From a virus (lineage: Duplodnaviria > Heunggongvirae > Uroviricota > Caudoviricetes): a stretch of DNA of 64,000 nucleotides. Under the pieces are notes generated by a model. The model saw nothing but the letters and a program-made list of their open reading frames with translations. It ran no database searches and was not told where the DNA came from. Of the stretch, positions 9,719 through 52,037 are shown piece by piece (within the stretch, counting starts at the first letter, position 1; each line of letters begins with the position of its first letter). Position numbers and translations under genes: made by a program. The stretch lies in IMG/VR virus record IMGVR_UViG_3300022555_000017, positions 1-64,000 of that record. One strand, given 5' to 3'.

Positions 9719-10600
9719 ATGATAGAACTTAAATATAGTTTAAATGATATTAAGGAATATGTTGAAAGTTTTAGATATAAACTTTTATCTACTGAATATA
9801 TCGGTATTATGTCAAAATTAAAATTAAAATGCCCTGAAGGCCACATATTTGAAACAAGATATAATAATTTTAAAAACATTAATAGTAGATGCCCTGAATG
9901 TAAGGGTAATAGAAAACATACATTAGAAAAAGTTAAAGAACATATTGAAAGTTTTGATTATAAACTATTATCAACAGAATATAGAAATGCCGATACAAAA
10001 CTTGAATTAAAATGTCCTTCTGGCCATATTTTTGATATAAAGTATCGTAGCTTTCAACAAGGGCAAAGATGTATGGAATGCTCAGGTAAAAGAAAACATA
10101 CATTAGATGAAGTTAAAGAATATATTGGGGTGTATGATTATAAAGTTTTATCTACTGAATATATTAATTCATATACAAAATTAAAGTTGCAATGCCCTGA
10201 AGGTCATATATTTAATATGATGTATCGTAATTTTCAACAAGGAGTTAGATGTCCTGAATGTTGTAATAAAAAAGGATGGTCTAAACCAGAAAAGGAAATA
10301 GCAAAATATGTTAAAACAATATATTCCGACAAAGTTATAGAAAATGATAGAACACAAATTAAAAACTATTGGACAAGTGCAGGTTTAGAATTAGATATAT
10401 GGCTACCTGAAGTAAAAAAAGCAATAGAGTTTAATGGTTCTTATTGGCATTCAAATAACAAAACAAAATGGTATGATGAAATGAAGAAAAGGCAGTGTAT
10501 GAAAAATGAAATTGATTTATTAGTTATAAATGAACAAGATTGGTATGATGATAAAATGTGCCAACTAAATAAAATAAATGTTTTTATAGGAGAAATGTAA
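9719..10600 (+). CDS. Zn-ribbon-repeat (x3) plus Vsr/DUF559-like nuclease family protein; putative homing endonuclease
   Basis: Three ~45-aa repeats (Y(I/V)ESF.YKLLSTEY...L.CP.GH.F...FQQG.RC.EC) and a C-terminal PEKEIA...ENDRTQ...LELDIWLPE...AIEFNGSYWH...QDWYDDK domain. Confidence 0.7.
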   Translation: MIELKYSLNDIKEYVESFRYKLLSTEYIGIMSKLKLKCPEGHIFETRYNNFKNINSRCPECKGNRKHTLEKVKEHIESFDYKLLSTEYRNADTKLELKCPSGHIFDIKYRSFQQGQRCMECSGKRKHTLDEVKEYIGVYDYKVLSTEYINSYTKLKLQCPEGHIFNMMYRNFQQGVRCPECCNKKGWSKPEKEIAKYVKTIYSDKVIENDRTQIKNYWTSAGLELDIWLPEVKKAIEFNGSYWHSNNKTKWYDEMKKRQCMKNEIDLLVINEQDWYDDKMCQLNKINVFIGEM

Positions 10601-10601
10601 A

Positions 10602-10859
10602 ATGAGTAGATGCGTGAAATGCCATGAACTAATGCCACCAGAATTAACTATGGAAATAGAAAATGATAAAAAAATGTGTATTTTTTGTAAGAGAGATACC
10701 AATGAGATTATAAATAATGGCATAAAGATTACAAGGACAGAAACGATTAAAGAATATAAAATGTTTTTAGATGAATTAAGAGGGCGTGCTGATTTACTGC
10801 GTGACTATGAATCAGGTAAGATAGACTTAAAGAACATATCAAGGATCATAAAACCATAA
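10602..10859 (+). CDS. Small zinc-ribbon protein (CVKCH...CIFCKRD)
   Basis: Two Cys pairs; TAAAATG coupling to the upstream gene. Confidence 0.4.
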   Translation: MSRCVKCHELMPPELTMEIENDKKMCIFCKRDTNEIINNGIKITRTETIKEYKMFLDELRGRADLLRDYESGKIDLKNISRIIKP

Positions 10860-11009
10860 AGGAGAAGAATAATGATAGCTAACGAAGATAACATTAAAAT
10901 GATTGAGTTTTTACAAGCCGGTATATGTGATCTTGTGGAAACTAGTAAAGACCTAACTGATAAGATAGCACGATTACAAAATATCCTACTTGACCTTATA
11001 AAATATAAC

Positions 11010-11038
11010 TTGACAAATAGGTAAAAATGTAGTATCAT
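11010..11038 (+). promoter_or_regulatory. Sigma70-type promoter, TTGACA-17-TATCAT
   Basis: ttgaca at 11010-11015, 17-nt spacer, tatcat at 11033-11038; aaaggag RBS follows. Confidence 0.45.
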
Positions 11039-11065
11039 TAAAATAAAAAGGAGTGTATTTATATT

Positions 11066-11251
11066 ATGATGATATGTGTTGATGATTTTGAGATTATTCG
11101 TTTAAAGGTTATAAGTCTTAGACATGAGCTAGAAACACTGGAAGAAAGATTAAATGAGTTGAAGATGGAGCATTTAGAATCATATAATGATCTGATTGAT
11201 GATGATAATATATATGATATTGCAGTCGAGGATTGGGAAGGAAGGTATTAA
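11066..11251 (+). CDS. Hypothetical protein (61 aa)
   Basis: Promoter plus RBS immediately upstream. Confidence 0.4.
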   Translation: MMICVDDFEIIRLKVISLRHELETLEERLNELKMEHLESYNDLIDDDNIYDIAVEDWEGRY

Positions 11252-11254
11252 GCA

Positions 11255-11767
11255 ATGGAAAATGTTATTTTATTAAATGGTGACTTTACAATTTTGGGTT
11301 TCATAGGTTGGAAGAAAGCCATTAAGTTGATTGTAAAGAAGAGAGTTGAAGTCATTAGTTATTCTGAGCGTATTATTCATAATTTTGAAAATACTATTAG
11401 AATGGCGATTCCTGCGGTTTTGCGATTACTTAAAGTAGTTCGTAAGCTATTTGGTGTTAGAGTGCCATTAAGCAAAAGAAATGTTCTGATACGCGATGGC
11501 CATAAGTGTGCATACTGCGGTAAGGTAAATAAGAAAGGTATGACCATTGATCATGTATTGCCAAAATCAAAGGGTGGCAAAACATCATTTGATAACTTGG
11601 TAACTGCTTGTGTGCATTGTAACAACAAGAAGGACAACAAAACTTGCAAAGAAGCAGGAATATATCCAAAATTTAAGCCTTTCACACCAACTATAAATCA
11701 ATTCCTACAAATTCAATTAGAAGGTAATGGAATAGTTAAAACATTAAAAAATTTAGGTATTTTATAA
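11255..11767 (+). CDS. HNH endonuclease (free-standing)
   Basis: CAYCGK...DHVLPKSKGG...NLVTACVHCNNKK HNH motif. Confidence 0.75.
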   Translation: MENVILLNGDFTILGFIGWKKAIKLIVKKRVEVISYSERIIHNFENTIRMAIPAVLRLLKVVRKLFGVRVPLSKRNVLIRDGHKCAYCGKVNKKGMTIDHVLPKSKGGKTSFDNLVTACVHCNNKKDNKTCKEAGIYPKFKPFTPTINQFLQIQLEGNGIVKTLKNLGIL

Positions 11768-11769: not shown

Positions 11770-12285
11770 ATGCCTAAAAGGCTAGATTATATAGATGCTA
11801 AAGAATATATTGAGAATTTTAGTTATAAATTATTATCTACTGAATATATTAATGCTCTTTCTAAATTAAAATTACAATGCCCTGAAGGCCATACATTTAA
11901 AATGCATTATAGTCACTTTAAAAGAGGTATACGATGCCCTGAATGTGCATCAGCATTAAAATGGTCTAAGCCAGAAAAGGAAATAGCTGAATATATTAAA
12001 AAACATTATATAGGTGAAGTAATTGAAAATGATAGAACACAAATAACAAACCATAAAACTGGTAAGAACCTTGAACTTGATGTATGGCTACCAGAGTTGT
12101 CTAAAGCCATTGAATATAACGGACTTCATTGGCATAATAATGATAAAGTAAAGTGTCGTGATAATATAAAAAGAAAGCAATGTGTTGAAAAGAAAATAGA
12201 GTTACTTATAATAGAAGATAAAGATTGGTATGATGATAAAGTATGTTGTCTAAATAAAATAAATGAACTAATAGGTATTTTATAG
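11770..12285 (+). CDS. Zn-ribbon-repeat (x1) plus Vsr/DUF559-like nuclease family protein
   Basis: A single N-terminal repeat plus the conserved C-terminal nuclease domain. Confidence 0.7.
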   Translation: MPKRLDYIDAKEYIENFSYKLLSTEYINALSKLKLQCPEGHTFKMHYSHFKRGIRCPECASALKWSKPEKEIAEYIKKHYIGEVIENDRTQITNHKTGKNLELDVWLPELSKAIEYNGLHWHNNDKVKCRDNIKRKQCVEKKIELLIIEDKDWYDDKVCCLNKINELIGIL

Positions 12286-12774: not shown

Positions 12775-13668
12775 ATGTGGTATAAATATAGGATGAGTAA
12801 AAAATATACAATAGAAGAAATAAAACTATACATTGAAAGTTTTGGATATACATTATTATCTACTGAATATAATAAAGCACTTTCTAAATTAGACCTTCAA
12901 TGTCCTGAAGGTCATTTATTTAAAATGAGATATAATAATTTTAAGAATCAAAGTCAACGATGCTCTATTTGTTTTGGTACACCTAAGAAAACAATAGAAG
13001 AAGTTAGAAATTATATTGAAAGTTTTAATTATAACCTTCTTTCTACTGTGTATATAAATAATAAAGAAAAATTAGTATTGCAATGCCCTGAAGGTCATAT
13101 AATAAAAATACGATTGGATAGTTTTAGTCATGGAACTAGATGTTCAATATGTTCTGGTAATGATAAAAATTCTATTGAAAAAATTAAAAAGCATATAGAA
13201 AGTTTTGATTATAAACTATTATCAACAGAGTATATAAATAATAAATCAAAAATAAAATTACAATGTAGTAAAAATCATACATATCAAGCTTCTTATCATA
13301 GATTTCAACAAGGTGATAGATGCCCTTTATGTGCAAATAGTGAAGGTAAATCAAAACCCGAAAAAGAAATTGTTGAACATATTAAAATAAATTACTATAA
13401 AGATATAATAGAAAATGATAGAACACAAGTTAAAAACTTTTGGTCTAATCGTAATTTGGAGCTGGATATATTTTTACCTGATATATCTAAAGCAATAGAA
13501 TTTAATGGTATATATTGGCATAAAAATAATAATGTAAAATGGAAAGATGAAATGAAAAGAAAACAATGTATTCAAAAAGGTATTGAGTTATTAGTTATAC
13601 AAGAGCAAGATTGGTATAATGATAAGTTATGTTGTTTAAATAAAATAAATGAGTTAATAGGTGCTTAA
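12775..13668 (+). CDS. Zn-ribbon-repeat (x3) plus Vsr/DUF559-like nuclease family protein (probable start ATG 12793)
   Basis: Family motifs; stop overlaps the next gene start (TAATGAATGA). Confidence 0.7.
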   Translation: MWYKYRMSKKYTIEEIKLYIESFGYTLLSTEYNKALSKLDLQCPEGHLFKMRYNNFKNQSQRCSICFGTPKKTIEEVRNYIESFNYNLLSTVYINNKEKLVLQCPEGHIIKIRLDSFSHGTRCSICSGNDKNSIEKIKKHIESFDYKLLSTEYINNKSKIKLQCSKNHTYQASYHRFQQGDRCPLCANSEGKSKPEKEIVEHIKINYYKDIIENDRTQVKNFWSNRNLELDIFLPDISKAIEFNGIYWHKNNNVKWKDEMKRKQCIQKGIELLVIQEQDWYNDKLCCLNKINELIGA

Positions 13669-14801
13669 TGAATGAATTACAAGTTGTTGAAAGAGGTATT
13701 TTTAATTTATTTTCGTTTTTAGGTGATAATAGTGGATGCGGACATATAAGAGTTATATTTCCTTACTTATATATACCACATTTGAGAGCTGAAGGATATA
13801 AGTTTGGTGCACAGTACTCTAGTTATTTTATTGATGATCTTAATTTTTACAAACAATTCACACTAGTACAGTTTCAAAGGTCAGCAACAAAAGATCAGTT
13901 GAACATGATTAAGCATTTCAAAAATCAGGTTCAGAAGTTTCATAAAATTGCTATAGTTTATGAAATAGATGATTTACTTACGGAAATTCCAGAATGGAAT
14001 TTTGCTTGTGCCTATTACAAAGAAAATCTTAAACACATTGAAGAAATGATGCAGATAGTTGATGGCATAACAGTATCAACAGAATATCTTAAAAATATAT
14101 ATACAAAATATAATTCAAAGATTGCCGTTGTTCCTAATCGTTTATGTAAGATGCTATGGGGTGAGATTGAGCCAGCACATGAACGAAGAGAGCCTAATAA
14201 GAAAATTCGTATTGGGTATCACGGTTCCGGTAATCATTTCTGTGATAGTAGGAGTAAAGAGTATAAAGATGGTATTCGCGGTGGTGATTTCAATGATAAA
14301 CTATTAAACTATATAAGAAAAACAGTCGATGATGTGCAGTGGGTATTTTCTGGTGCTATACCACCTGAGTTAAATGATGTTAGAGATAAGATAGAGTATC
14401 ATAACTGGGTAAATGTTTTAGAGTTTCCAAGTAAGGTTAAGTCACATAAACTTGATATATGCTTAGCACCATTAATAGATAACATATTCAATAGGAGCAA
14501 AAGCAATATAAAGTTATTAGAATCAGTAGCACTAGGTATACCAATAGTTTGTTCTGATCTTGAGTCATATAAGGAATCGTATCTTAAAACAAATGACGAT
14601 GATGAGTTTATAGGATATATTGAGAAATTGGTTGCTGATCAGGATTTTAGAAGGTTGACATTTGAGAAAAACTATGATACAATAGGTTTACAAGATAAGT
14701 TATGGTGGGAAGGTAGAGACAGAAATTATAGTAATGTCTATAAGTATGTTGATTCTTATCTATCATTATTTGGCAAGAGGTTAAAAGATGGCATTTATTG
14801 A
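13668..14801 (+). CDS. Putative GT-B fold glycosyltransferase (GT4-like)
   Basis: C-terminal LESVALGIPIVCSD resembles the E..G.PVV.S signature of GT-B glycosyltransferases; otherwise unassigned. Confidence 0.4.
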   Translation: MNELQVVERGIFNLFSFLGDNSGCGHIRVIFPYLYIPHLRAEGYKFGAQYSSYFIDDLNFYKQFTLVQFQRSATKDQLNMIKHFKNQVQKFHKIAIVYEIDDLLTEIPEWNFACAYYKENLKHIEEMMQIVDGITVSTEYLKNIYTKYNSKIAVVPNRLCKMLWGEIEPAHERREPNKKIRIGYHGSGNHFCDSRSKEYKDGIRGGDFNDKLLNYIRKTVDDVQWVFSGAIPPELNDVRDKIEYHNWVNVLEFPSKVKSHKLDICLAPLIDNIFNRSKSNIKLLESVALGIPIVCSDLESYKESYLKTNDDDEFIGYIEKLVADQDFRRLTFEKNYDTIGLQDKLWWEGRDRNYSNVYKYVDSYLSLFGKRLKDGIY

Positions 14802-16382: not shown

Positions 16383-17255
16383 ATGATTGCATTATATTGC
16401 CATAATGATATGGACGGCAAATGCTCTGGTGCTATTGCATATAGAGAACTTAGTAAGCAATACGGTATAAATGAAATACTAATGTATGTTGTTGATTATG
16501 GAGATAAATTACCTACATTTAAGGCTGAAGATAGCTTAAAGGCTGTATACATAATGGATTTTAGTTTTGAACCTGAATATATGGATTATCTGATTTCATT
16601 AGTAGGTAGAGATAATGTTATATGGATTGATCATCATATTTCAGCTATTAAAAAGTTAAATGATTATAGAGATTTGAATGGACTTAGAAGTATTATTATG
16701 TCTGGTTGTATGTTGACATTTAGATATTTTTATCCAGATAAGTTTGCTCCTATGGTTATAGAGCTGGTTGAAGATTTTGATCTGTACATTTATAGATACG
16801 GTGATTTAACTAAAGGGTTTCAAGAATGGTCTAACTATAATGATACTGAGCCAACTAATATTATTTGGGATCGGTTGCTTACATCTAACTTTGACCAACT
16901 AGAAGAACTATCACAAGAAGGTCTAAGATTTAGAGAAATTAGATTATGGAAGTTAGAGAAGGACATTGAAAGATTAGCATATATTGATGAGATTGATGGC
17001 CATAAGTGTTTGAAGATGAACCTTACACAACTGGATAGTATTTCAGATGCAGGTGATTTTGTTATAAATATATTAGGGTATGATTTATTTTGGGCATATT
17101 CTGATTTTGTAATCAATGGTAAGTTACGAAGGACAAATCAGTTACGAAGTCATGTAATTGATGTATCTAAACTTGCAGATAAATTTGGCGGGGGTGGGCA
17201 CGCTCGTGCAGCAGGGTTTCTGTCTGATATAGGAGAAAGGAAAGGTGAATGTTGA
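16383..17255 (+). CDS. DHH/DHHA1 family phosphoesterase (NrnA/RecJ-like)
   Basis: CHNDMDGKCSGA (H.D.DG..S), IWIDHH (DHH) and GGGGHARAAGF (DHHA1 GGGH motif). Confidence 0.65.
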   Translation: MIALYCHNDMDGKCSGAIAYRELSKQYGINEILMYVVDYGDKLPTFKAEDSLKAVYIMDFSFEPEYMDYLISLVGRDNVIWIDHHISAIKKLNDYRDLNGLRSIIMSGCMLTFRYFYPDKFAPMVIELVEDFDLYIYRYGDLTKGFQEWSNYNDTEPTNIIWDRLLTSNFDQLEELSQEGLRFREIRLWKLEKDIERLAYIDEIDGHKCLKMNLTQLDSISDAGDFVINILGYDLFWAYSDFVINGKLRRTNQLRSHVIDVSKLADKFGGGGHARAAGFLSDIGERKGEC

Positions 17256-17823
17256 GGATAAAATAGACAAAATATTAGTTGAAGCATCACTATCAAGGAT
17301 ATGGCAGCACATTGAGAAAGGCAATTCTTTAGGTGTTATTACTGCTTTTCGGTCGAATGATCCAGACAATCTTAAAAAAAATAAAAAACTACAATCTGAA
17401 ATAAATGTAGCTGGATTTGGGTATTTTCCAATGAATGGTGTATACATAGAAGATTTTGGTAGTGATGAGCCAAAAAAGGTTGAAGAGAGTTCATTCTTTG
17501 TTATTAGTACACATCCAGAAAAATTAAGAGATTTTCTTATTAAAATGGGTAAGAAATATGAACAGGACAGCGTATTGTTTATGGATAATTCGGTAGAAGA
17601 TAAAGTTGCTGTTCTGATAGGTACAAAAGCTGATGCATGGCCTGGTTTGGGTGTTGTTCATACATTAGGCAAATGGCATCCTAATAAGATAAGAGATTTT
17701 TATTCCAAGTTAAAGGGAAGTAAATCATTTGTATTTGAAGATATAGATATAAATATGGATTTACCTACTGGTTTAATGGCTAGATCAGTAAAAAATAAAA
17801 TTGATTCTCAAGGTTTACAATAG
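17245..17823 (+). CDS. Hypothetical protein (192 aa), translationally coupled to the DHH phosphoesterase
   Basis: ORF overlapping the upstream stop. Confidence 0.45.
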   Translation: MNVEDKIDKILVEASLSRIWQHIEKGNSLGVITAFRSNDPDNLKKNKKLQSEINVAGFGYFPMNGVYIEDFGSDEPKKVEESSFFVISTHPEKLRDFLIKMGKKYEQDSVLFMDNSVEDKVAVLIGTKADAWPGLGVVHTLGKWHPNKIRDFYSKLKGSKSFVFEDIDINMDLPTGLMARSVKNKIDSQGLQ

Positions 17824-17847: not shown

Positions 17848-18735
17848 ATGAAAAAATTAAATTATATTGATGTTAAAAATAATATAGAAAATTTTGGATA
17901 TAAGTTATTATCTGAAAAATATATAAATGCTTTGACTAAACTAGAAATGCAATGTCCTGAAGGTCACGATTTTGAGATAAAATATAATAATTTTCAACAA
18001 GGTCAAAGATGCTCTATTTGTTTTGGTACGCCTAAGAAAATATTAAATGAAATTAAAGAGTATATAGAAAGTTTTAATTATAAATTACTTTCTACTGAAT
18101 ATAAAGATAATAGAACTAAACTAGAATTACAATGTTCTGAAGGCCATATATTTAAAATGGCATATGGTAGTTTTAAAAATCAAAATTATAGATGCCCGGA
18201 ATGTGCTGGTAATAGAAAATTTATAATAGAAGATATTAAAGAATATATTGAAAGTTTTGACTATAAACTTTTATCAACTGAATATGTAAATATATTTTCC
18301 AAGTTAAAAATACAATGTTTAAAAGGTCATATATACGCTGTAACGTATAATAATTTTAAGAATCATAATAGAAGATGCCCAGAATGTTCAAATAGTAAAA
18401 TGTTTTCTAAACCAGAAAAGGAAATTGCTGAATATGTTAAAGAGAATTATACTGGTGATGTTGTAGAAAATGACAGAACACAAATAGTAAATTATTGGAC
18501 AGGTGTTGGATTAGAACTTGATGTTTGGATGCCAGAAGCAAGAAAAGCAATAGAATTTAATGGTTCTTATTGGCATAATAATGAAAATGCTAAATGGCAT
18601 GATGAAATAAAAAAGAAACAATGCATACAAAAGAAAATAGATTTATTAGTTATACAAGAGCAGGATTGGTATAATGATAAGGTATGTTGTTTAAATAAAA
18701 TAAATAATTTAGTTTACAATACGGTTGGAATATAG
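17848..18735 (+). CDS. Zn-ribbon-repeat (x3) plus Vsr/DUF559-like nuclease family protein
   Basis: Family motifs. Confidence 0.7.
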   Translation: MKKLNYIDVKNNIENFGYKLLSEKYINALTKLEMQCPEGHDFEIKYNNFQQGQRCSICFGTPKKILNEIKEYIESFNYKLLSTEYKDNRTKLELQCSEGHIFKMAYGSFKNQNYRCPECAGNRKFIIEDIKEYIESFDYKLLSTEYVNIFSKLKIQCLKGHIYAVTYNNFKNHNRRCPECSNSKMFSKPEKEIAEYVKENYTGDVVENDRTQIVNYWTGVGLELDVWMPEARKAIEFNGSYWHNNENAKWHDEIKKKQCIQKKIDLLVIQEQDWYNDKVCCLNKINNLVYNTVGI

Positions 18736-38728: not shown

Positions 38729-38729
38729 G

Positions 38730-38990: not shown

Positions 38991-39000
38991 AGAGGTAACA

Positions 39001-39972: not shown

Positions 39973-40613
39973 GTATAAATGTTTTAGTACCGATGGACAA
40001 TGAAAAAATTATAGCAAAAATAGAAAGTCAGTTAGAAACGGATGATACTTTAACAGTATTTAATTTACCTGCATATCCTGCTAGAATTATAGATTCCCTT
40101 TTCTCAAAAACAAAAAATGATAGAATATTATTTATTAGCCCATTTACTTTTGTTATTGCTGATAATTTTATAGAAATGTTTAGAAAAAATGATTTACCTT
40201 TTAATATGTATTTAAGAACATGGGGTGAAGAAATAAATGATTTTGTAAAAGGATCAAAAGGAGATTTCAAATTTAGTGATTCCATATGCTTTTATAAAAA
40301 TAAATATCTGAGAAATTTAACCGATTATTCTAATACTTTATGTTTTGATGATATAATGAAATTATTTATCAAAACATCACATCTAAATATTTATGTACCT
40401 GATACAAGAATAGAAACTTGTAAGGTGATTGAAAAACTTGAAGAGCTTGATGCGATTGATGAAACTAAAGAAATAGTACCTGAAGTGGTAGTTGATGAAC
40501 CTGTACTTAAAAAATCTACGGCTAAAGCTAAAAAGGCATCTGTTAAAACAACTGAAAAGAAAACTGAAGAAGTTAATGTAAAGGAGTGCAATTCTAATAG
40601 CTGGATGGACTAA
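39969..40613 (+). CDS. Hypothetical protein (214 aa) with a K/T/E-rich C-terminal tail
   Basis: ORF; ATGA coupling to the upstream gene. Confidence 0.45.
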   Translation: MSINVLVPMDNEKIIAKIESQLETDDTLTVFNLPAYPARIIDSLFSKTKNDRILFISPFTFVIADNFIEMFRKNDLPFNMYLRTWGEEINDFVKGSKGDFKFSDSICFYKNKYLRNLTDYSNTLCFDDIMKLFIKTSHLNIYVPDTRIETCKVIEKLEELDAIDETKEIVPEVVVDEPVLKKSTAKAKKASVKTTEKKTEEVNVKECNSNSWMD

Positions 40614-43768: not shown

Positions 43769-43827
43769 AAAACATATTGACAATTAACCTCAGATATGTT
43801 AGAATAATACATTAAAGGAGGTACTTA

Positions 43828-44334
43828 TTGATCTACTTCGCATCAGATTACCATTTCAATCACTCGCAAATTATAGATTATTGTAAAAGACCATTTAAAG
43901 ATGTAGAAGAAATGAACAATACAATAATAGAAAATCATAATAGAATCGTTAAAGATGATGATATAGTAGTCTTTTTAGGAGATTTTTGTTTTAAAGATGG
44001 TATTGAATACCTAAGTAAAATGAAAGGTCATTTTCAACTAATAAAAGGAAATCACGATAGAAGAAATGGTTTACCTTGTTTGTTTAAAAAAGCAATATTC
44101 ACACAGTACAATTATAAAATAATGGTAGCACATGATCCAGACACAGTATTTCCTGGCTTTGATTTATATTTTGTAGGCCATGTTCACGACCATTGGAAGT
44201 TTAAAAGAGTTATAAGAGATAAAAAGAAAATGGATATGATAAATGTATCAGTAGATGTATGGGATTTTAAGCCAGTATCTATTGATCAACTTGTTAATTT
44301 TTATAGAGAATGTAAAACGAATGGGAGAAAATAA
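43828..44334 (+). CDS. Calcineurin-like metallophosphoesterase (TTG start)
   Basis: DYHFNH, GDFCF, GNHD and GHVHDHW metal-binding motifs; aaaggagg RBS. Confidence 0.65.
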   Translation: MIYFASDYHFNHSQIIDYCKRPFKDVEEMNNTIIENHNRIVKDDDIVVFLGDFCFKDGIEYLSKMKGHFQLIKGNHDRRNGLPCLFKKAIFTQYNYKIMVAHDPDTVFPGFDLYFVGHVHDHWKFKRVIRDKKKMDMINVSVDVWDFKPVSIDQLVNFYRECKTNGRK

Positions 44335-44335
44335 T

Positions 44336-44710
44336 ATGATAGAAGAAATTGTTGATGATGTAGAAATTGTTTTGGGCACTGTAATTGATTTAAAAGGATT
44401 TTCTTTGGGATTTATAAAGAACATTCAAGAGGCATTAAAAGTCAATTCATCCTTTCAGGATTTCCAAGACGATTTTGATAAGGGAATGTATACGGATGAA
44501 ATGGAAGCATACCTTAATGACAATACTAGTGAGTTTAAAGTATGTTATGATGATATAAATGAATCGTTTATATTTTACATTCCCATGAACTCAGAAGATA
44601 TTGAAGATAAAACTATCAGAGAACTAAAAGAAAAATTGATTGGTGATATGGAAATATTTACTTTATTTATATCATATGATGATGTAGATATTTTTGCACT
44701 AGAGGATTAA
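44336..44710 (+). CDS. Hypothetical acidic protein (124 aa)
   Basis: gggag RBS before the ATG at 44336. Confidence 0.4.
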   Translation: MIEEIVDDVEIVLGTVIDLKGFSLGFIKNIQEALKVNSSFQDFQDDFDKGMYTDEMEAYLNDNTSEFKVCYDDINESFIFYIPMNSEDIEDKTIRELKEKLIGDMEIFTLFISYDDVDIFALED

Positions 44711-44711
44711 C

Positions 44712-45677
44712 ATGGATAGATTTATATGGAAAAATGGTGAGATTCTACCTGAATATGAAGCAACAGTGAGTATATATGATTCTGCAATGATGCTTGGCGA
44801 TACAATTTTTACTATGCTCAGAACATTCAATAAAGAATTATACCTCATTGATGAACACCTTGAAAGATTATTTGATAACTTAAAATACGTTAGAATGTCT
44901 ATACCATATGATAAATATGAAATAAAAAATGCACTATATGATGTAATGGATGCCAATAAGTTCAATGATGATGATGAACACAGACTGATGATAAACTGCA
45001 CGCGGGGTTTATTATCACTATATCAAGATGTTGAACACTCTAAAGGCCCTAATGTTATAATTGCCGATTTTCCCTTAAAATGGACGGTAGCAGGAATGGG
45101 AAAGCTATTCGATGAAGGTATCAATATGATAACCCCAAATCAAAGGTCTATCCCTTCTCGTTTGCTTGATGCTAAAGTAAAATGTAGATCAAGATTACAT
45201 TACCTAATGGCTAATATTGAAGTATCACAATATGCAGGTGAAAATAACTGGGCATTATTGTTAGACGAAGATGGATTTGTAGCAGAAGGAACCGGTGATA
45301 ACTTCTTTATTGTTAAAGATAAGATTATATATACACCTGAACCTCGTAATATACTTAGAGGTATTACAAGAAAAAGAATAATGAAAATGGCTCATGTAGT
45401 CGAAAAAAATATTGATATATATGATGTAATGACTGCTGATGAAGCGTTTATTTCAGGTACGCCTTTTGTTGTTCTACCAGTAGTATCATTAAATGGTGTT
45501 AAAATAGGAACAGGTAAAACAAAAGACTATACAGAGTTTTGGTATTTATTATCAAAATGGTGCTGCGAATATGGTGTTAATATTAAAGAGCAAATACAAG
45601 AATGGGATAAAAAATATGTAGAACTACAATCAAGAAAAGGTGCTTCACCATATAAATTTAAGGAGAATAAAATATGA
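44712..45677 (+). CDS. Class IV (BCAT/DAAT-type) PLP aminotransferase
   Basis: FIWKNGEI...EHLERL and LLDEDGFVAEGTGDNFFIVKDKIIYTP align to IlvE (IWFNGE...EHMQRL, MLDVNGYISEGAGENLFEVKDGVLFTP). Confidence 0.75.
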   Translation: MDRFIWKNGEILPEYEATVSIYDSAMMLGDTIFTMLRTFNKELYLIDEHLERLFDNLKYVRMSIPYDKYEIKNALYDVMDANKFNDDDEHRLMINCTRGLLSLYQDVEHSKGPNVIIADFPLKWTVAGMGKLFDEGINMITPNQRSIPSRLLDAKVKCRSRLHYLMANIEVSQYAGENNWALLLDEDGFVAEGTGDNFFIVKDKIIYTPEPRNILRGITRKRIMKMAHVVEKNIDIYDVMTADEAFISGTPFVVLPVVSLNGVKIGTGKTKDYTEFWYLLSKWCCEYGVNIKEQIQEWDKKYVELQSRKGASPYKFKENKI

Positions 45678-46333
45678 AAAATATCTCAGTTGTAATACCC
45701 GCAAGAGGCGGAAGTGTAGGAATACCAAATAAGAATATGATGCTGATAAATAATAGACCATTATTAACATATACTATAGAAAAAGCATTAAATCTAAATG
45801 CTGACAATATTTATGTAAGTACAAATGATGAAGATATAAAAAACTATGTCAATAATAATTATAGAAATATTATTATTGATGATAGACCAGATGAACTAGC
45901 AACAAGTGCATCGACAATGGAAGAACTTATATCGTATATGTTAGGAAAATATAACATGGATATATTAATTCTATTACAACCCACATCACCGCAAATTGAT
46001 GCCGAATATATACATAAAGGTGTTCTTGATGTTTTAAGAGGTTATGATTCAGCACTTAGTATCTATAGAACGGATGAAAATGATGTTTTAATGTGGGATT
46101 TGGATACAAAAATACCTTTAAACTATGATCTAAAAAATCGTGGAAATAGACAGGAAAGAAAAGATAAATATGCTGTTGAAACTGGTGGCTTTTATATTAC
46201 TACTAAAGAACAATTTATAACAAGTAATTGTAGAATAGGTGGTAATATTTCATTCATTGAAATCCCATTTTGGCAATCGTTTGAGATAGATGAAATGATA
46301 GATGCTCTAATGATAGCAAAACTAATGAGGTAA
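45674..46333 (+). CDS. Acylneuraminate cytidylyltransferase family (NeuA/PseF-like CMP-nonulosonic acid synthetase)
   Basis: N-terminal ISVVIPARGGSVGIPNKN is the CTP_transf_3 P-loop-like motif. Confidence 0.6.
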   Translation: MKNISVVIPARGGSVGIPNKNMMLINNRPLLTYTIEKALNLNADNIYVSTNDEDIKNYVNNNYRNIIIDDRPDELATSASTMEELISYMLGKYNMDILILLQPTSPQIDAEYIHKGVLDVLRGYDSALSIYRTDENDVLMWDLDTKIPLNYDLKNRGNRQERKDKYAVETGGFYITTKEQFITSNCRIGGNISFIEIPFWQSFEIDEMIDALMIAKLMR

Positions 46334-46336
46334 AAT

Positions 46337-47134
46337 ATGCTAAATGGTCTTGGATATACGAATGTAGAATTAAGCTCAGTATGTAATAAAAGTTGCTGGA
46401 TGTGTGGAAGGCGTAAAAGAGATAAAGAACAACGTGGCGATGAATATGGATTTATGGAATATGAAACTGCTATAAAAATTGCAAATGAAATACCAGCTGG
46501 AACCATGATTCAGTTGCATAATAATGGTGAAGGTCTTATGCATCCAGAATTTGGTAAGATGTTAAAATTATTTAAACATTGTATAACTAATATTGTATCT
46601 AATGGAAAACTTATACTTAAAAAAGCCGATGAAATAATTGATCATCTTGATATACTTACAATTTCTATCATACAAGGTGATGATGGTGAAGAACAAATAG
46701 ATCAATATACTATATTAAAAAAGTTTTTACTATTAAAAGGTGATAAAAAACCTAATGTTATTTTAAGATTTCTTGGTGATTGTGATGAGAGAACTTATAA
46801 TGATTTTAACTTACTTCATGTAAATAGAGTTTTACATATACCTGATGGAAGTAGAAATTATACTAAAACACCTACCATACCAGAACATGGAGTCTGCACA
46901 GACCTCTTAAATCATCTTGCTATTGATCGTCACGGTGATGTGAGTTGCTGTGTTAGATTTGATCCTAATAGAATGCTTGTATTAGGCAATATAATGTATT
47001 CTTCTTTAGATGAATTATGGAATTGCGAAAAAAGATTAAGTATGATTAAAAAACACATAGAGGGCAAACGATCAGAAGTGCCGTATTGCGGTAATCAATG
47101 CGAGTTCTGGGGCATTGCAACTTCGGGAAAATAA
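46337..47134 (+). CDS. Radical SAM protein with a Cys-rich (SPASM-like) C-terminus
   Basis: CNKSCWMC (CxxxCxxC); C-terminal CC...C...C..C cluster. Confidence 0.55.
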   Translation: MLNGLGYTNVELSSVCNKSCWMCGRRKRDKEQRGDEYGFMEYETAIKIANEIPAGTMIQLHNNGEGLMHPEFGKMLKLFKHCITNIVSNGKLILKKADEIIDHLDILTISIIQGDDGEEQIDQYTILKKFLLLKGDKKPNVILRFLGDCDERTYNDFNLLHVNRVLHIPDGSRNYTKTPTIPEHGVCTDLLNHLAIDRHGDVSCCVRFDPNRMLVLGNIMYSSLDELWNCEKRLSMIKKHIEGKRSEVPYCGNQCEFWGIATSGK

Positions 47135-47887
47135 ATGCATTATAAAATGGCAGATTTTGTAAAATTAAAACAAACTGATACAGTATTTTTAATTGGAAGT
47201 GGATCATCACTAAATGAAATAACAGAGGATCAATGGTCTATAATAAATAGTTATGATAATATGGGTGTAAATAATATATTTTATCACCCATTTTTTATAC
47301 CTAAATCACTTCATTTAGAACTTAAAAAATATGATTGGGGTATTGCAAAAGAAAGACTTGAAGAAAAATGGGAATTGGGTTGGAAAAATGTAAATTATAT
47401 TTTCCCAATCGAAAGATATGCATATATATCAGGTGCTATAGGGCATGAAAAAAAGGCTAAAATTTTTACTTATAGATATGAAAGAAGAGGATTTCATCCT
47501 AAAAAACATCCAGATACAAAAATAGATGCAAATTTTAATCCCGATAAAATTTTATATAAATCATATGATACTAGTGTTTCAACTATTATACAAATGTTAT
47601 ATTTAATGGGGTATAAAAATATAATACTTTGGGGTTTAGATATGAGAGATAGTAAATATTTTTGGACTGATATGGAACCTGAAGTTAGAGGATTAGTTCA
47701 TGATTTATGGAACAAACAAAGAGAAGGAAAAGATAAAAATACACCACATAATGCATCTCATTTACAAGATTATATAACAGATTTTAATGATAAATTTATG
47801 AAGCCAAAAAGAAGAGAGATTTTTGTTGGTCATAAATCAACATTATTATATCCAAAACTACAATATATTGATATAGATAAATTATAA
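47135..47887 (+). CDS. DUF115/MptE-like (Maf-like) domain protein, paralog 1
   Basis: VFLIGSGSSL near the N-terminus resembles the GSGPS motif of DUF115/Maf proteins; paralogous to the next gene. Confidence 0.4.
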   Translation: MHYKMADFVKLKQTDTVFLIGSGSSLNEITEDQWSIINSYDNMGVNNIFYHPFFIPKSLHLELKKYDWGIAKERLEEKWELGWKNVNYIFPIERYAYISGAIGHEKKAKIFTYRYERRGFHPKKHPDTKIDANFNPDKILYKSYDTSVSTIIQMLYLMGYKNIILWGLDMRDSKYFWTDMEPEVRGLVHDLWNKQREGKDKNTPHNASHLQDYITDFNDKFMKPKRREIFVGHKSTLLYPKLQYIDIDKL

Positions 47888-48621
47888 TGCATAATATTAC
47901 AGAACTTCTTAACTATAAAAAAAGTAATATAGCTGTAATTTTAGGCAGTGGATCGTCAATAAATGACATAACAGAACAAGAATGGGAAAAATTAAAAACC
48001 TTTGATCTTTGGGCATTAAATAACTGGGTTTACCATCCTTCAGTAATACCCAATTTTTATCATATAGAAGTTAAACATTATGATGCAGAAATTGTTAAAA
48101 GAAGATTGGAAGAAAAATGGGATAAGTATAAAGATGTTATATATTTAGTGCCTTCTATAAGACAAGATGTAGTAGATGTTATAGGGCATGAAAATGAAGC
48201 TAAAATATTTTATTATGAATATATTAAAAGAAATATATATAAAAATAAAATAAATGCTAATTATAATATAAAAATAAAAGGTATTTTTGTAAGATCATAT
48301 AATACATCATTATCATTATTAATAGATATGTTATATAAATTAAAATATAGATATATTATTTTAGCAGGCGTAGATTTATTGGATTCAAGATATTTTTGGA
48401 CTAATGGCGATCCTAATATATATGGTGAAGTACATCAACAATGGAATAAAGAAATTAGTGGAGGTAAAATTGATGCCCCTCATAAAACTCACCATATTTC
48501 AAATTTCATAATTGATTTTAATAATCAGCATATGAAATCTAAAAAAAGAGAAATATTTTTAATAACTAAAAAATCAAAACTTTATCCAGATTTAAATTGT
48601 ATTAAAATAGAGAATATATGA
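47887..48621 (+). CDS. DUF115/MptE-like (Maf-like) domain protein, paralog 2
   Basis: IAVILGSGSSI...; clearly paralogous to 47135-47887 (EEKW, GHE.EAKIF.Y, YFWT, PKRREIF). Confidence 0.4.
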   Translation: MHNITELLNYKKSNIAVILGSGSSINDITEQEWEKLKTFDLWALNNWVYHPSVIPNFYHIEVKHYDAEIVKRRLEEKWDKYKDVIYLVPSIRQDVVDVIGHENEAKIFYYEYIKRNIYKNKINANYNIKIKGIFVRSYNTSLSLLIDMLYKLKYRYIILAGVDLLDSRYFWTNGDPNIYGEVHQQWNKEISGGKIDAPHKTHHISNFIIDFNNQHMKSKKREIFLITKKSKLYPDLNCIKIENI

Positions 48622-49358
48622 TAGAAAAAAATATAACTATATGCCCCTTATGCCATAGTAAAAGTAATAGAGTAGTGTATAATATAAATTTCACAACATT
48701 ACAATGTAATGATTGTCAATTATATTTTCATAAAAATTATTATACAAAAGAAGAATTATTTAGGTTTTATTCTACAAATTATGGTGTTAGTAGAGGAAAA
48801 AGAGCAAATATAAAAAATCCTGAAAGAATTTTATTTAATGAAAGTAAATATGAATTTTTAAAGGAGAGAAATTGTAGATTAAGATTTATGCCTGTTATAG
48901 ATTCATTTACAGAAAAAAGGAATATACTAGAAATCGGTGCTGATGCAGGTGGCGCTACAAGATATATGATAAAAAGGGGTCATAATGTAGAAGCTGTAGA
49001 ATTATTTAAAGATTATGCTGATAAGCTTACAAAAGAAGGCATTAAAGTTTATAATGATCTATTTGAAAATATTAATTTTAATAAAAAATATGATTTAATT
49101 GTTGCATTAGAAGTGATTGAACACTTTTCAGACCCGTTAAAATGTATAAATAAAATATATAATTTATTAAATACGGATGGTTATTTTATATTTGAAACAC
49201 CTGTAGCAAAAGATGGTTTAGTTGATTCTGCATCATATAGTATAAGACCTTCGCATTATTGTGTATTTAATTCAACTTCTCTAAGTATATTATTAAAAGA
49301 TTTTAAAAATTTACCAAAATTTAATGAAGGCAATGAGGTATATAAAATTAAAAAATGA
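48618..49358 (+). CDS. Class I SAM-dependent methyltransferase with N-terminal Cys4 zinc ribbon
   Basis: CPLCHS...CNDC; LEIGADAGGATRYM (motif I). Confidence 0.55.
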   Translation: MIEKNITICPLCHSKSNRVVYNINFTTLQCNDCQLYFHKNYYTKEELFRFYSTNYGVSRGKRANIKNPERILFNESKYEFLKERNCRLRFMPVIDSFTEKRNILEIGADAGGATRYMIKRGHNVEAVELFKDYADKLTKEGIKVYNDLFENINFNKKYDLIVALEVIEHFSDPLKCINKIYNLLNTDGYFIFETPVAKDGLVDSASYSIRPSHYCVFNSTSLSILLKDFKNLPKFNEGNEVYKIKK

Positions 49359-49663
49359 GTAGATATGAAGATAAAACGATAGAAAAATTATTAGAAGAAC
49401 TTGAAATTGAAGGTGAATTTTTAGATAAAGAGTTAGCAAATATAACAGGAAAAGATAAAATATCACCGGCGGGTGTAGTAAGATCAGTAACAGATGAAGA
49501 AAGAAATACGAAAAAAAGATGGATATGCTCAATTTTAAGAGATATTTATAATCATTCAGATAATGATGATGTAAAAAAATATACAATAGAAGCAGCAATT
49601 CAAGCTAAAAAAATGACAAGAAAATTAGCAGAATATAAAGCAAAGGAATTAAAAAATGAATAA
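49355..49663 (+). CDS. Hypothetical protein (102 aa)
   Basis: ORF, translationally coupled. Confidence 0.4.
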   Translation: MSRYEDKTIEKLLEELEIEGEFLDKELANITGKDKISPAGVVRSVTDEERNTKKRWICSILRDIYNHSDNDDVKKYTIEAAIQAKKMTRKLAEYKAKELKNE

Positions 49664-50228
49664 TATATGTATGTATGGTAGTTATACTGATTATATACCA
49701 TTGCTGAAAGAATATAAAGGTGGTTCTTTTTTAGATGTAGGTGGTAATAATGGTAAAGCAGAAGCATATGCAGAAGGATTTAAATATTTTGTTTTAGAAC
49801 TTTCGCAACCAAAGCATCCACATGAAAATACGATTATAGGGGATATATGTAATTGCCAAGAAATTAAAGATGATTCCTATGATGTAGTATATTCCAATGA
49901 TGTATTTGAGCATCTTTTAGAACCTTGGTCAGCGGCTGAGCACATTATTAGAATATGTAAACCTGGCGGACTAATCATAACAAGTACTGTTTTTTCTTGG
50001 AGATTTCATCCTGTTCCTGTAGATACATTTAGATATACGCATCAAGGACTTGAATATCTTTTTACAAGAACTGGTAAGGTACAAAGTTTAATAAGTAAAT
50101 ATGATATAAGAAAGAGAAGGAAAGATTCAAGAGGTAAAGGTGAATTTGATTTGCCTCCTATTGATGAATTAGGTGGCTGGCGAGAAAATTGGAAAGTACT
50201 ATATGTTTGTAAGAAAAATAAACAATAG
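49656..50228 (+). CDS. Class I SAM-dependent methyltransferase
   Basis: FLDVGGNNGK (motif I), VVYSNDVFEHL, CKPGGLI. Confidence 0.55.
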   Translation: MNNICMYGSYTDYIPLLKEYKGGSFLDVGGNNGKAEAYAEGFKYFVLELSQPKHPHENTIIGDICNCQEIKDDSYDVVYSNDVFEHLLEPWSAAEHIIRICKPGGLIITSTVFSWRFHPVPVDTFRYTHQGLEYLFTRTGKVQSLISKYDIRKRRKDSRGKGEFDLPPIDELGGWRENWKVLYVCKKNKQ

Positions 50229-50237
50229 GAGTAATAT

Positions 50238-51089
50238 ATGAATAATGTGTTATTAGTTGGCGAAATTGGCTTGAATGGAAATGGGGATTTAGAAATAACC
50301 AAAAAACTAATTAATATCTGTCATGCGTTCGGCGTTGACTATGTTAAATTTCAAAAAAGAACATTAGATAAATGTTATACACAAGAAGAACTTAATAAAC
50401 CAAGAGAAAGTCCGTGGGGTACAACAACAAGAGAGCAAAAACAAGGTTTAGAATATAGTAAGGAAGAGTATAATGAAATAGATAAATATTGTAAAATGGT
50501 TGGTATAAAATGGTTTGCATCCGTTTGGGATATAGAATCTGTAAATTTTATTGAAAGTTATGATGTTCCATTTATAAAGATACCATCAGCATTGATCTCA
50601 CACATTGAACTACTGAACTCCGTCAAAAGGTCAGGAATACCTGTTATCATATCAACTGGTATGAGTGAGTGGGAAGAAATTAAAACAGCTATTTCCATTT
50701 TAGGTGATAATCTTAAATATGTTCTACACACAACTTCAAGTTATCCTACCCCTGTTGATGAAATGAATTTAAATAAGATAACAACATTAAAAGATTCAGC
50801 TCCTATTAGTGGTAGCTATAAGATAGGATTTTCAAATCATCACCAAGGAACATTCTTTTGCACAGTTGCAGCAGTTTTGGGTGCTGAGATGATAGAATTT
50901 CATGTAACTTTAGATAGGGCAATGTATGGGTCTGATCAGGCGGCCAGTATTGAGCCAAATGGTATAAGACTTATTGTAGATCACATAAGAGATTTAGATG
51001 TTGCAATGGGTGATGGATATTGGAAAAGGAAAATAGAACCATCAGAAATACCAGTAATAAAAAAATTAAAAAGAAATCTTGACTTTTAA
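50238..51089 (+). CDS. NeuB/PseI-family nonulosonic acid (sialic/pseudaminic/legionaminic) synthase, short form (no obvious SAF domain)
   Basis: N-terminal VGEIGLNGNGDLEITKKLINICHAFGVDYVKFQKR matches the NeuB TIM-barrel N-terminus (IAEIG.NH.G.L..A..LI..A...GADAVKFQ). Confidence 0.6.
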   Translation: MNNVLLVGEIGLNGNGDLEITKKLINICHAFGVDYVKFQKRTLDKCYTQEELNKPRESPWGTTTREQKQGLEYSKEEYNEIDKYCKMVGIKWFASVWDIESVNFIESYDVPFIKIPSALISHIELLNSVKRSGIPVIISTGMSEWEEIKTAISILGDNLKYVLHTTSSYPTPVDEMNLNKITTLKDSAPISGSYKIGFSNHHQGTFFCTVAAVLGAEMIEFHVTLDRAMYGSDQAASIEPNGIRLIVDHIRDLDVAMGDGYWKRKIEPSEIPVIKKLKRNLDF

Positions 51090-51125
51090 ATAAAAATAGA
51101 GTATACTGAGGTTAAATAATAAAGA

Positions 51126-52037
51126 ATGTTAAATAAAAAATATAATTTAAATACAGTTAGAGAGTATATAGAAAGTTTTAGTTATAAACTTTTATCAACT
51201 GAATATAAAGATAACAAATCTAAATTATTATTACAATGTCCTAAAAATCATATAATAAAATTATCACTTCATAATTTTAAAGAAAATAGATGTTCTATAT
51301 GTTCAAATAAAAAACCTGATTTATATGAAATTAGTAACTATGTTGAAAGTTTCAATTATAAAGTTATATCTACAGAATATACAAATAAAAAAAATAAATT
51401 AAAAATACAATGTTCTGAAGGGCATATTTATGAAAGTAGTTATAACAGTTTTAAAAATGGTATTAGATGCCACTTATGTAAAGATAAAAAACTAAAAAAG
51501 GAAAAATTACACACTAATATTTTATATAATAAAAAGAAAACTTTAAAAGAAGTTAAAGAATATATTGAAAGTTTTGGTTATAATCTTTTATTTACAGAAT
51601 ATATAAATGCTAGGTCTAAATTAAAGTTAAAATGCCCTTCTGAGCATATATATAATGTAAAATGGCCAGATTTTAAAAACAATCATAGATGTCCTGAATG
51701 TGCATCGGTTAAGGGATGGTCTAAGCCAGAAAAAGAAATAGCTGAATATGTTAAAACAATATATTTAAATAATATTATAGAAAATGATAGAACACAAATA
51801 AAGAACTATTGGACAAATAAAAATTTAGAACTGGATATTTGGCTACCAGAAATAAGAAAAGCAATAGAGTTTAATGGTTCTTATTGGCATAATAATGATA
51901 AGTCAAGATGGTATGATGAAATAAAAAAGAAACAATGCATACAAAAAGGTATTGATTTATTAGTTATAAATGAACAAGATTGGTATGATGATAAAAAACT
52001 TCAATTGAATAATATTGGAGGATTTATCAATGTTTGA
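51126..52037 (+). CDS. Zn-ribbon-repeat (x3) plus Vsr/DUF559-like nuclease family protein
   Basis: Family motifs; located at the 3' end of the glycan cluster. Confidence 0.7.
   Translation: MLNKKYNLNTVREYIESFSYKLLSTEYKDNKSKLLLQCPKNHIIKLSLHNFKENRCSICSNKKPDLYEISNYVESFNYKVISTEYTNKKNKLKIQCSEGHIYESSYNSFKNGIRCHLCKDKKLKKEKLHTNILYNKKKTLKEVKEYIESFGYNLLFTEYINARSKLKLKCPSEHIYNVKWPDFKNNHRCPECASVKGWSKPEKEIAEYVKTIYLNNIIENDRTQIKNYWTNKNLELDIWLPEIRKAIEFNGSYWHNNDKSRWYDEIKKKQCIQKGIDLLVINEQDWYDDKKLQLNNIGGFINV

Follow-up and report, generated by a model that had tools for sequence, protein, structure and literature searches.

The closest described relatives of the genes analysed here are homing endonuclease genes (HEGs) reported in "Presence of group II introns in phage genomes" (NAR 2025; PMC12350094). 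These HEGs, which include the AR9/PBS1-type "Hef-like" genes, encode several ~60-aa CapR/DUF4379/DUF723-related domains followed by a ~100-aa EDxHD/Vsr-like nuclease, and they reside in group I or group II introns of jumbo-phage RNA polymerase genes, with 3-5 modules each. The same combination recurs in the stretch of viral DNA studied here (64,000 nucleotides, positions 1 to 64,000 of IMG/VR record IMGVR_UViG_3300022555_000017; hereafter the window), but in genes of a T4-like phage that are free-standing and intergenic, hold 1-3 modules each and are present in far more copies. The best annotated match was the AR9/PBS1 "Hef-like homing endonuclease" adjoining the RNA polymerase beta' gene (36% identity, 96% coverage). 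On sequence comparison, the window genes are members of the Hef / EDxHD-Vsr family with a sub-architecture of one to three CapR/DUF4379 modules and a Vsr-like nuclease. This is a known gene family with ~13,000 cluster representatives, and many GenBank phages annotate it as "Hef-like homing endonuclease". An earlier note on this DNA had proposed a candidate new endonuclease family that is not one of the classical types; this is corrected here, as the genes fall in the Hef / EDxHD-Vsr family and the CapR-like module and nuclease architecture had already been published.

The U5 Hef reportedly cleaves DNA in a site-specific manner. Like the window genes, U5 Hef and the Hefs of Campylobacter T4-like phages (NCTC12673, CP220 and others) are free-standing HEGs of T4-type phages near ribonucleotide reductase genes; U5 Hef reportedly lies between nrdA and nrdB, whereas one window copy, Hef8, lies between nrdG and nrdD. 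GenBank notes link the Campylobacter Hefs to U5 Hef at the C-terminus, and Hef1 of the window shares 32-33% identity with Campylobacter phage Hefs over 95-97% of its length. The window genes may be placed, indirectly, with the U5 Hef type, the link running via Campylobacter Hef58, the GenBank notes and Taylor (2011). The Campylobacter Hefs are also multi-copy (10-12 nuclease domains per genome), but they are longer (481-607 aa) and the density in the window is about twice as high. At least 16 Hef copies are found in the one ~190-kb phage genome and, judged against about 50,000 GenBank phage records, this uncultured T4-like phage has the highest density of such HEGs so far. The load had previously been called unusual, which holds for the density, about double the highest among sequenced phages, but the difference is one of degree and not of kind. 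A 10-kb search for near-identical DNA in GenBank phages gave no match, and the phage is therefore regarded as uncultured and without a close sequenced relative. Its natural strain variation makes it well suited to work on how these enzymes, which have received little study, select and alter their targets.

The nuclease fold and catalytic residues are shared with I-Bth0305I (PDB 3R3P), the EDxHD prototype with known site-specific DNA cleavage (Taylor 2011), and with E. coli Vsr (1CW0). The gene for I-Bth0305I lies within a group I intron of recA, and the protein has NUMOD/HTH-type N-terminal DNA-binding elements and no zinc modules; Vsr, a nickase of mismatch repair, has a zinc site of its own. 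Profile and structure comparison give the C-terminal ~100 aa of the window proteins a Vsr-type alpha/beta nuclease fold, and the AF2 model of Hef2 (pLDDT 90.5) matches Vsr-type nucleases. The composite catalytic motif E...D...(N/H)...H...D is present and, in a comparison of a nine-copy profile with the PDB, its residues align to the I-Bth0305I core, with a spacing of D-13-N-5-H-9-D here and D196-N208-H213-D222 in I-Bth0305I. The profile was required, as a full-length single-sequence PDB search returned a spurious zinc-ribosomal protein as its sole match. Across the nine full-length copies 36 nuclease positions are invariant, including E69, D104, N117, H122 and D131 (Hef2 numbering), which are 78-97% conserved in 70 homologues. 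The dN/dS of the nuclease is about 0.25 (a rough value, with dS near saturation) and indicates purifying selection. The earlier reading of the domain as a Vsr-type PD-(D/E)XK nuclease is borne out by profile, fold and catalytic residues, its activity being predicted. The alternative label DUF559/Vsr stands for the Vsr-type fold but not for DUF559: PF04480 was not among the Pfam matches, PF18741 (MTES_1575) reached 16-22 bits against a cut-off of 38.2, and the relation to both Pfam families is, on these scores, at superfamily level only. An NCBIfam scan gave no meaningful match. The HNH label of phrog_559 is a misnomer, since no HNH family was among the Pfam matches at E <= 1 and the fold is Vsr-like.

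The N-terminal modules resemble those of homing endonucleases, in ICP1 and other phages, that join CapR domains to a T5orf172 nuclease. Zinc-finger modules of this one type are frequently arrayed in tandem there, repeat recombination alters their number, and these HEGs have been proposed to diversify targets rapidly (Netter 2021; Barth 2023). The nuclease in those HEGs is T5orf172, of the GIY-YIG superfamily, whereas here it is Vsr-like, and the ligand pattern is CxxC...CxC in CapR and C-x3-H...C-x2-C here (a predicted CHCC set vs CCCC). From profiles and the Hef2 model, the window modules are predicted to be DNA-binding, CapR/DUF4379-type treble-clef zinc modules; PLE CapR itself has been shown to bind DNA in a sequence-specific manner that depends on zinc. 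The proposal of N-terminal zinc-ribbon recognition units thus survives as to zinc ligands and a DNA-binding type of module, with a treble clef in place of the ribbon, and the repeat period is ~60 aa and not ~45 aa. PF21817 scored 38-45 bits (threshold 24.2) in the three 3-module copies scanned, and PF14311 scored 36-41 bits for Hef1 and Hef5 (threshold 24.5), whereas Hef9 reached only 20.9 bits with it; Hef2, with its single module, missed both thresholds (18.8 and 15.7 bits, respectively). The ligands C37, H41, C56 and C59 do not vary across 70 sequences, and in the Hef2 model C37/H41 sit on a hairpin (E32-36/E42-46) while C56/C59 open helix 57-63. A role of the proteins as domesticated regulators in the manner of PLE CapR, with modules that bind promoters and an inactive or vestigial nuclease, is very improbable. 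The CapR homology family, in which the modules do fall, was founded on an HEG-derived transcriptional repressor, but CapR is without a nuclease domain, and the conservation of the E/D/N/H/D set and the low dN/dS noted above argue against such a loss of function.

Nine full-length copies lie on the plus strand, with 3, 1, 3, 3, 3, 3, 3, 2 and 3 modules (24 in all) from Hef1 to Hef9, each followed by the nuclease. Hef1 (9719-10600; 293 aa; translation, Pfam, PHROG, tblastn, HMM scan) has an identical protein (P0001) on 22 contigs. Hef2 (11770-12285; 171 aa; translation, Pfam, AF2 model, fold matches) starts 2 nt after the end of an HNH endonuclease ORF (11255-11767), and Hef3 (12775-13668; 297 aa; translation, tblastn) is directly followed by a glycosyltransferase gene (13668-14801). 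Hef4 (17848-18735; 295 aa; translation, tblastn) is flanked by an S-AdoMet lyase-like gene and gp32; Hef5 (22927-23805; 292 aa) was recovered by translation, Pfam, PHROG and tblastn. Hef6 (29664-30542; 292 aa; translation, tblastn, HMM scan) stands in tandem with Hef7 (30598-31479; 293 aa; translation, tblastn), downstream of which is a T4-type RNase H gene. Hef8 (33183-33878; 231 aa; translation) exactly fills the nrdG-nrdD junction, with gaps of 0 nt and 5 nt. Hef9 (51126-52037; 303 aa; translation, Pfam, tblastn), with a NeuB-like gene upstream, has a linker 14 aa longer in its third module. The tenth member, downstream of a RusA-like gene, is a plus-strand remnant of 75 aa (28589-28816), which retains the C-terminal two-thirds of the nuclease and no modules (HMM positions 218-289, E = 1.7e-39).

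All ten members listed in the earlier note translate clearly as paralogues, and tblastn and the HMM scan agree on them, but nine and not ten are full-length. One C-terminal domain as tblastn query matched the nine others (E = 1e-28 to 1e-53), one module matched 24 module copies, and the ten members scored E = 1e-39 to 1e-155 in a six-frame HMM scan. The motifs quoted for them (PEKEI, ENDRTQ, LELDI, AIE(F/Y)NG.(Y/H)WH and C-x3-H...C-x2-C) were all found. The scan added two fragments to the list. The first is a short 3' remnant of 22 codons on the minus strand (57279-57362; DKDWYNDKLCCLNKIKGLIGV*, E = 2e-6), downstream of a RecA/UvsX-like gene and 88% identical in nucleotides to the 3' end of a Hef at another locus (L014). 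The second, marginal and only possibly a decayed 5' module fragment, lies on the plus strand just past the nrdD stop (35797-35934; LKEVKQYIEKFD.EL, E = 0.0025, weak).

The best explanation, to which a probability of roughly 78% is given, is that the window Hefs are free-standing HEGs of the Hef / EDxHD-Vsr family, which would home from Hef-carrying to Hef-less relatives and have probably been spread and retargeted via module recombination. The basis for this comprises the domain identities, intact catalytic and zinc-ligand residues in nine copies, purifying selection on the nuclease, precise intergenic placement beside conserved genes of DNA metabolism, empty sites in relatives, decayed copies and exchange between paralogues. 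By analogy with I-Bth0305I, U5 Hef and T4 seg/mob, in a mixed infection the zinc-module array would bind an extended DNA site within or next to the adjoining conserved gene in a relative that lacks the Hef; the nuclease, probably dimeric like I-Bth0305I, would cut close by, and recombinational repair from the Hef-carrying genome would copy the Hef gene and flanking markers across. Recombination of similar 180-nt module units within or between paralogues could alter module number and the variable residues near the C-x3-H hairpin, and would probably retarget copies, letting at least 16 colonise the ~190-kb genome.

The suggestion of free-standing-HEG-like genes lodged among T4-type genes is supported by intergenic placement and agrees with empty sites in relatives. 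The same genome carries gp32, RNase H, gp23, gp13-15, gp18 and gp19. An Rfam scan of the window gave no intron signal at any Hef, and its sole group I intron holds an HNH ORF and no Hef. Insertions are precise at gene junctions, and in two divergent phages an insertion lies at a catalytic-motif codon of polB. The nrdG-nrdD junction is empty in two relatives (L034/L035), both from the metagenome scan; an NrdD search of viral contigs gave no match. The site upstream of gp32, occupied here by Hef4, is without a Hef in the distant relatives L008-L013, in whose 12-kb loci, which keep the GT-orf210-gp32 order, no Hef was detected; the position of Hef3, ahead of the glycosyltransferase gene, is covered by this comparison as well. 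Comparison with genomes lacking the insertions thus yielded empty sites in distant relatives but no presence/absence polymorphism among near-identical strains: in ~20 near-identical strain contigs from several samples, all copies looked at occupy their sites and no Hef-less allele was seen. Any ongoing homing in this population is hence hypothetical, Hef-less sites being confined to relatives that share 44-65% protein identity, among which a single ancient insertion would give the same picture.

This pattern also fits a static, vertically inherited family, produced in one old duplication burst and now immobile, whose differences reflect long-ago lineage-specific gain and ordinary recombination. 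The paralogues are indeed old (mean pS 0.54; 59-75% amino-acid identity), but such a history is considered improbable given the precise junction and polB insertions, the experimental mobility of the family founder in the literature, and the differences between strains. Between strains that match elsewhere, the differences are tracts recently exchanged among paralogues and alleles with different module numbers. Hef8 has two alleles that differ by a 91-bp tract (33251-33341), and Hef7 has a mosaic allele in another strain. Comparison of otherwise identical genomes shows that nearly all change lies in the zinc-module arrays and stems from paralogue exchange. General hypervariability of the modules was rejected, as the excess (16.7 vs 2.4 per kb) comes from Hef7 and Hef8 only, with no strain differences in Hef1-5. 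Two other sources of the alleles were rejected: DGR-like mutagenesis, since the Hef8 tract has 20 substitutions that span all types and are not A-specific, and assembly chimeras, since both Hef8 alleles turn up repeatedly in assemblies made independently from different samples. Repeats of this kind break metagenome assemblies, which is a practical warning.

We know of no recognition code for such modules. Module shuffling in HEGs was proposed earlier for the T5orf172 class, and it is conceivable, though speculative, that the ~60-aa modules form a modular, recombinable code in which each reads a short DNA step via hypervariable residues near the C-x3-H hairpin and exchange of modules or tracts between paralogues retargets the nuclease. 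If so, they would constitute a natural zinc-finger-nuclease toolkit, and at least 16 paralogue/insertion-site pairs together with allele pairs (Hef8 A/B) would be a dataset with which to decipher it.

A further explanation, thought unlikely, is that the copies are kept mainly for the benefit of the phage and not by selfish homing, whether as nucleases that help to outcompete relatives in the same cell (marker exclusion), that counter satellites or other parasites (like ICP1 Odn) or that boost recombination or amplification. It overlaps with the homing explanation because the molecular mechanism is identical. Nine catalytically intact copies under purifying selection and fixed across strains and samples would suit it, as would the co-option of HEGs in ICP1/PLE and T6 SegB known from the literature, but fixation and intact ORFs are equally expected of successful HEGs, the remnants show some copies decaying, and no satellite or competitor target came to light. 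The T4 late promoter motif TATAAATA showed no association with Hef starts. In favour of phage benefit, three Hefs have consensus sigma-70-type promoters of their own, as predicted from sequence: TTTACA-N17-TATAAT upstream of Hef4, the promoter-like TTGACT-N17-TATAAT upstream of Hef7 and TTGACT-N17-TATACT upstream of Hef9.

Nine full-length genes in the window (Hef1 to Hef9, at 9719-10600, 11770-12285, 12775-13668, 17848-18735, 22927-23805, 29664-30542, 30598-31479, 33183-33878 and 51126-52037) encode plainly related proteins of 171-303 aa, and a remnant at 28589-28816 on the plus strand encodes a 75-aa piece of the C-terminal nuclease domain. The earlier note counted ten full-length paralogues; translation of the ten intervals yields ten related members, of which the tenth is this fragment. 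With one C-terminal domain as query, tblastn of the window recovered the other nine members (E = 1e-28 to 1e-53), and a single repeat unit recovered 24 units. Scanning the window in all six frames with an HMM returned these ten members again (E = 1e-39 to 1e-155). The multigene family is confirmed. The scan also added two fragments missing from the earlier list, namely a 3′ Hef end of 22 codons downstream of the RecA/UvsX-like gene (57279-57362, minus strand; E = 2e-6) and a marginal 5′ module fragment just past nrdD (35797-35934; E = 0.0025). From Hef1 to Hef9 the N-terminal zinc-ligand modules number 3, 1, 3, 3, 3, 3, 3, 2 and 3, with a period of ~60 aa rather than the ~45 aa first proposed. 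The nine nuclease domains share 59-75% pairwise identity and 36 invariant positions.

These genes were proposed as a candidate new family, but they are new members of a known family of homing endonuclease genes (HEGs), recognised as Hef-type in GenBank annotation and the literature and also represented in PHROGs. In tblastn searches, 534 of 50,697 GenBank phage records were matched. The best of them cover 95-97% of the protein at 32-36% identity and are annotated as 'Hef-like homing endonuclease' (Bacillus phages AR9 and PBS1) or 'Hef58' (Campylobacter phage NCTC12673); further matches carry the annotation 'group I intron-associated VSR homing endonuclease'. Sandegren et al. (2005), as quoted by others, defined Hef (homing endonuclease-like function) by experiment in the T-even phage U5, in which it takes the place of mobE in the gap separating nrdA from nrdB and cleaves close to its own locus. 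The GenBank record of NCTC12673 notes its own Hef genes as similar to U5 Hef at the C-terminus, and 'bacteriophage Hef type homing endonucleases' have been assigned to the Vsr-like EDxHD family, with I-Bth0305I as prototype (Taylor et al., 2011). Exactly this architecture was described in 2025 as 'three to five ~60aa domains' (CapR, DUF4379, DUF723) followed by a C-terminal ~100aa EDxHD/Vsr domain, with thousands of UniProt matches (PMC12350094). CapR-type modules are also known from the T5orf172 class as HEG DNA-binding units, with tandem repetition and recombination between repeats (Netter, 2021; Barth, 2023). An exhaustive nuclease-domain profile search gave 12,981 cluster representatives at E <= 1e-3, of which 1,764 remain at E <= 1e-10; the nuclease lies at the C-terminus in every case, and the region ahead of it lengthens in ~60-residue steps. 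The PHROGs counterpart, phrog_559 (E = 3e-58), is labelled 'HNH endonuclease', a label rejected here because the HNH motif is absent and the fold is Vsr-like. This mislabel has propagated into several GenBank records, such as '77: HNH endonuclease' in PBS1.

The reading of the C-terminal domain as a Vsr/DUF559-like nuclease holds for its Vsr-like part. A nuclease profile aligned with I-Bth0305I (PDB 3R3P) through the AIE-NG-YWH core (E = 0.0027). Modelling the one-module copy Hef2 with AlphaFold2 from a 70-sequence alignment gave a confident structure (pLDDT 90.5), which had 3R3P as its sole Foldseek match at E <= 1e-3 (TM 0.68 on target). Numbered as in Hef2, the composite catalytic set comprises E69, D104, E115-x-N117-G118, H122 and D131-x-x-K134; it does not vary among the nine copies and shows 78-100% conservation in the 70 homologues, and the spacing D-13-N-5-H-9-D is close to that of D196/N208/H213/D222 in I-Bth0305I. 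In Pfam, the Hef proteins gave no DUF559 match and an MTES_1575 match below threshold only. The nuclease is under purifying selection (median dN/dS about 0.25), and the paralogues are old, with a mean pS of 0.54.

For the modules, the proposed zinc-ribbon fold gives way to a treble clef, as judged from the Hef2 model, which places the C and H ligands on a beta-hairpin knuckle and C-x2-C at a helix N-terminus. The ligands C37, H41, C56 and C59 are invariant across the 70 homologues. Modules of the three-module copies pass the Pfam gathering threshold for CapR (PF21817); that for DUF4379 ('probable treble clef zinc finger') is passed by Hef1 and Hef5 and not by Hef9 (20.9 bits), and Hef2 lies under both cut-offs. 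Hypervariable module positions (27-31, 34, 39-40, 44-49, 52 and 54) are likely to set specificity, because they coincide with the differences between Hef8 alleles.

Hef paralogues exchange sequence. Apart from the Hef genes, the window and the metagenomic contig L018 are identical over ~6.7 kb (window 31,480-38,182), and strain-level variation is limited to Hef7 and Hef8. Within this stretch Hef8 carries 20 substitutions clustered in 91 bp (33251-33341), altering 10 residues around the C-x3-H hairpin in its first module, and in Hef7, where the alignment begins, identity drops to ~68% over the middle modules. Both Hef8 alleles turn up again in assemblies made independently from different samples, and the tract in the window matches Hef paralogues at other loci with 100% identity along 95 nt (L014:2484-2578 and L015:178-272). 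Contigs L014 and L015 are themselves 99.99% identical over 14.5 kb, yet carry two-module and three-module alleles at one site. Many contigs of this phage (ends of L019-L022) terminate inside the tandem Hef6/Hef7 pair (window 30478-31479), indicating that repeated Hef genes break assemblies.

The interpretation of these genes as HEGs, together with the domain-level reading, was right. The phage is uncultured, T4-like and ~29% G+C; the window holds T4-type genes (gp32, RNase H, NrdG/NrdD, primase-like, RecA/UvsX-like and Rad50/Mre11-like), and same-species contigs, 100% identical outside the Hef genes, carry gp23, gp13, gp14, gp15, sheath and tube genes. Every Hef copy is co-oriented with its neighbours and tightly packed; four begin 0-2 nt past the stop codon of the preceding gene and lack an obvious Shine-Dalgarno sequence, and near-consensus TTGACT-N17-TATAAT-type promoters lie upstream of Hef4, Hef7 and Hef9. 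Hef4 precedes gp32, Hef7 precedes RNase H, and Hef8 sits exactly between nrdG and nrdD (nrdG stop, 696-nt Hef8, 5 nt, nrdD ATG). In two metagenomic relatives (NrdD 64-65%, NrdG 42-51% identity) nrdG lies directly next to nrdD, separated by 30 nt in one and 3 nt in the other, and no Hef occurs anywhere in 8.9 kb. More distant relatives (gp32 44% identity) retain the order glycosyltransferase - orf210 - gp32, with no Hef detected in these 12-kb loci, and in the window Hef3 and Hef4 fill these junctions. Both this genome and a 171-kb relative (polymerase 45% identity) have the DNA polymerase B gene interrupted by a Hef gene of 4 or 5 modules. The position is shared, directly ahead of the catalytic (Y)IDTDS motif, and the Hef gene lies between pieces of 519+267 aa (L031:8442-12018) and 619+289 aa (L016:8142-13230). 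In L031 the C-terminal piece seems to begin at a TTG that precedes the called ORF.

By analogy with I-Bth0305I, U5 Hef and T4 seg/mob, the module array would bind an extended site within or next to the neighbouring conserved gene in a co-infecting genome that lacks the Hef; the Vsr-like domain, probably as a dimer, would cut nearby, and recombinational repair would then copy the Hef gene with flanking markers. As decay products, the 75-aa remnant and the 3′ end of 22 codons fit the HEG life cycle. Every examined Hef copy is fixed in about 20 near-identical strain contigs, which counts against ongoing homing.

By the number of nuclease-domain matches in each record, no sequenced phages are richer than the Campylobacter T4-like phages, which have 10-12 in ~132 kb, against 10 in the 64 kb of the window. 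A further 4 and 3 intact copies come from two other 21-kb samples of this genome, giving at least 16 intact copies in ~106 kb of a ~190-197-kb genome. The load called unusual in the earlier note is therefore notable, at about twice the known maximum density, but the difference is one of degree. The interest of these genes lies in this record density and in the clean natural cases of module-tract exchange.

Other mobile elements are also present. A cold-shock protein gene (19732-20664, plus strand) is interrupted inside its KGFGFI motif by a group I intron of about 732 nt (19774-20505; Rfam RF00028, 60.8 bits, core 20163-20464). The intron carries an HNH endonuclease ORF (19802-20440), whose called length differs between strains (194 or 212 aa). 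Exon 1 encodes 14 residues and ends in T, exon 2 is preceded by G, and gene callers give only a 53-54-aa CSD fragment at this locus. A free-standing HNH endonuclease ORF (11255-11767, plus strand; phrog_16726, E = 1.5e-30) ends 2 nt upstream of Hef2, placing two HEGs of different families in tandem. The same lineage has a GIY-YIG/NUMOD3 seg-like gene between gp13 and gp14 (L014:14953-15855), and on contig L016 (1-1284 and 14790-15764) a PhoH gene with a faint LAGLIDADG match, possibly an intein, and a split-in-two UvsW gene with an intein-splicing domain.

Among the remaining genes, a Band_7 (SPFH) gene is missing from one strain and present in the window and other strains (L025:7114-7560 versus window 20914-21777). 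A sugar-gene block (36430-51089 and 62022-62990) encodes GT2/GT1 glycosyltransferases, a NeuB-like sialic/nonulosonic acid synthase and an NAD-dependent epimerase/dehydratase, and amidoligase-like and S-AdoMet lyase-like genes lie at 8103-9377 and 17245-17823. The TROVE (E = 1e-22) and Ro60-type vWA domains of a 498-aa protein (55265-56761, minus strand) point to a Ro60-like protein in a phage; no Y RNA was detected in the window by Rfam at the gathering threshold. The same phage genome also carries a PrkA - DUF444 - SpoVR trio (L014:5930-12444), with a Hef gene between DUF444 and SpoVR. This trio is a conserved bacterial set associated with stress and sporulation, and an unusual cargo for a phage.
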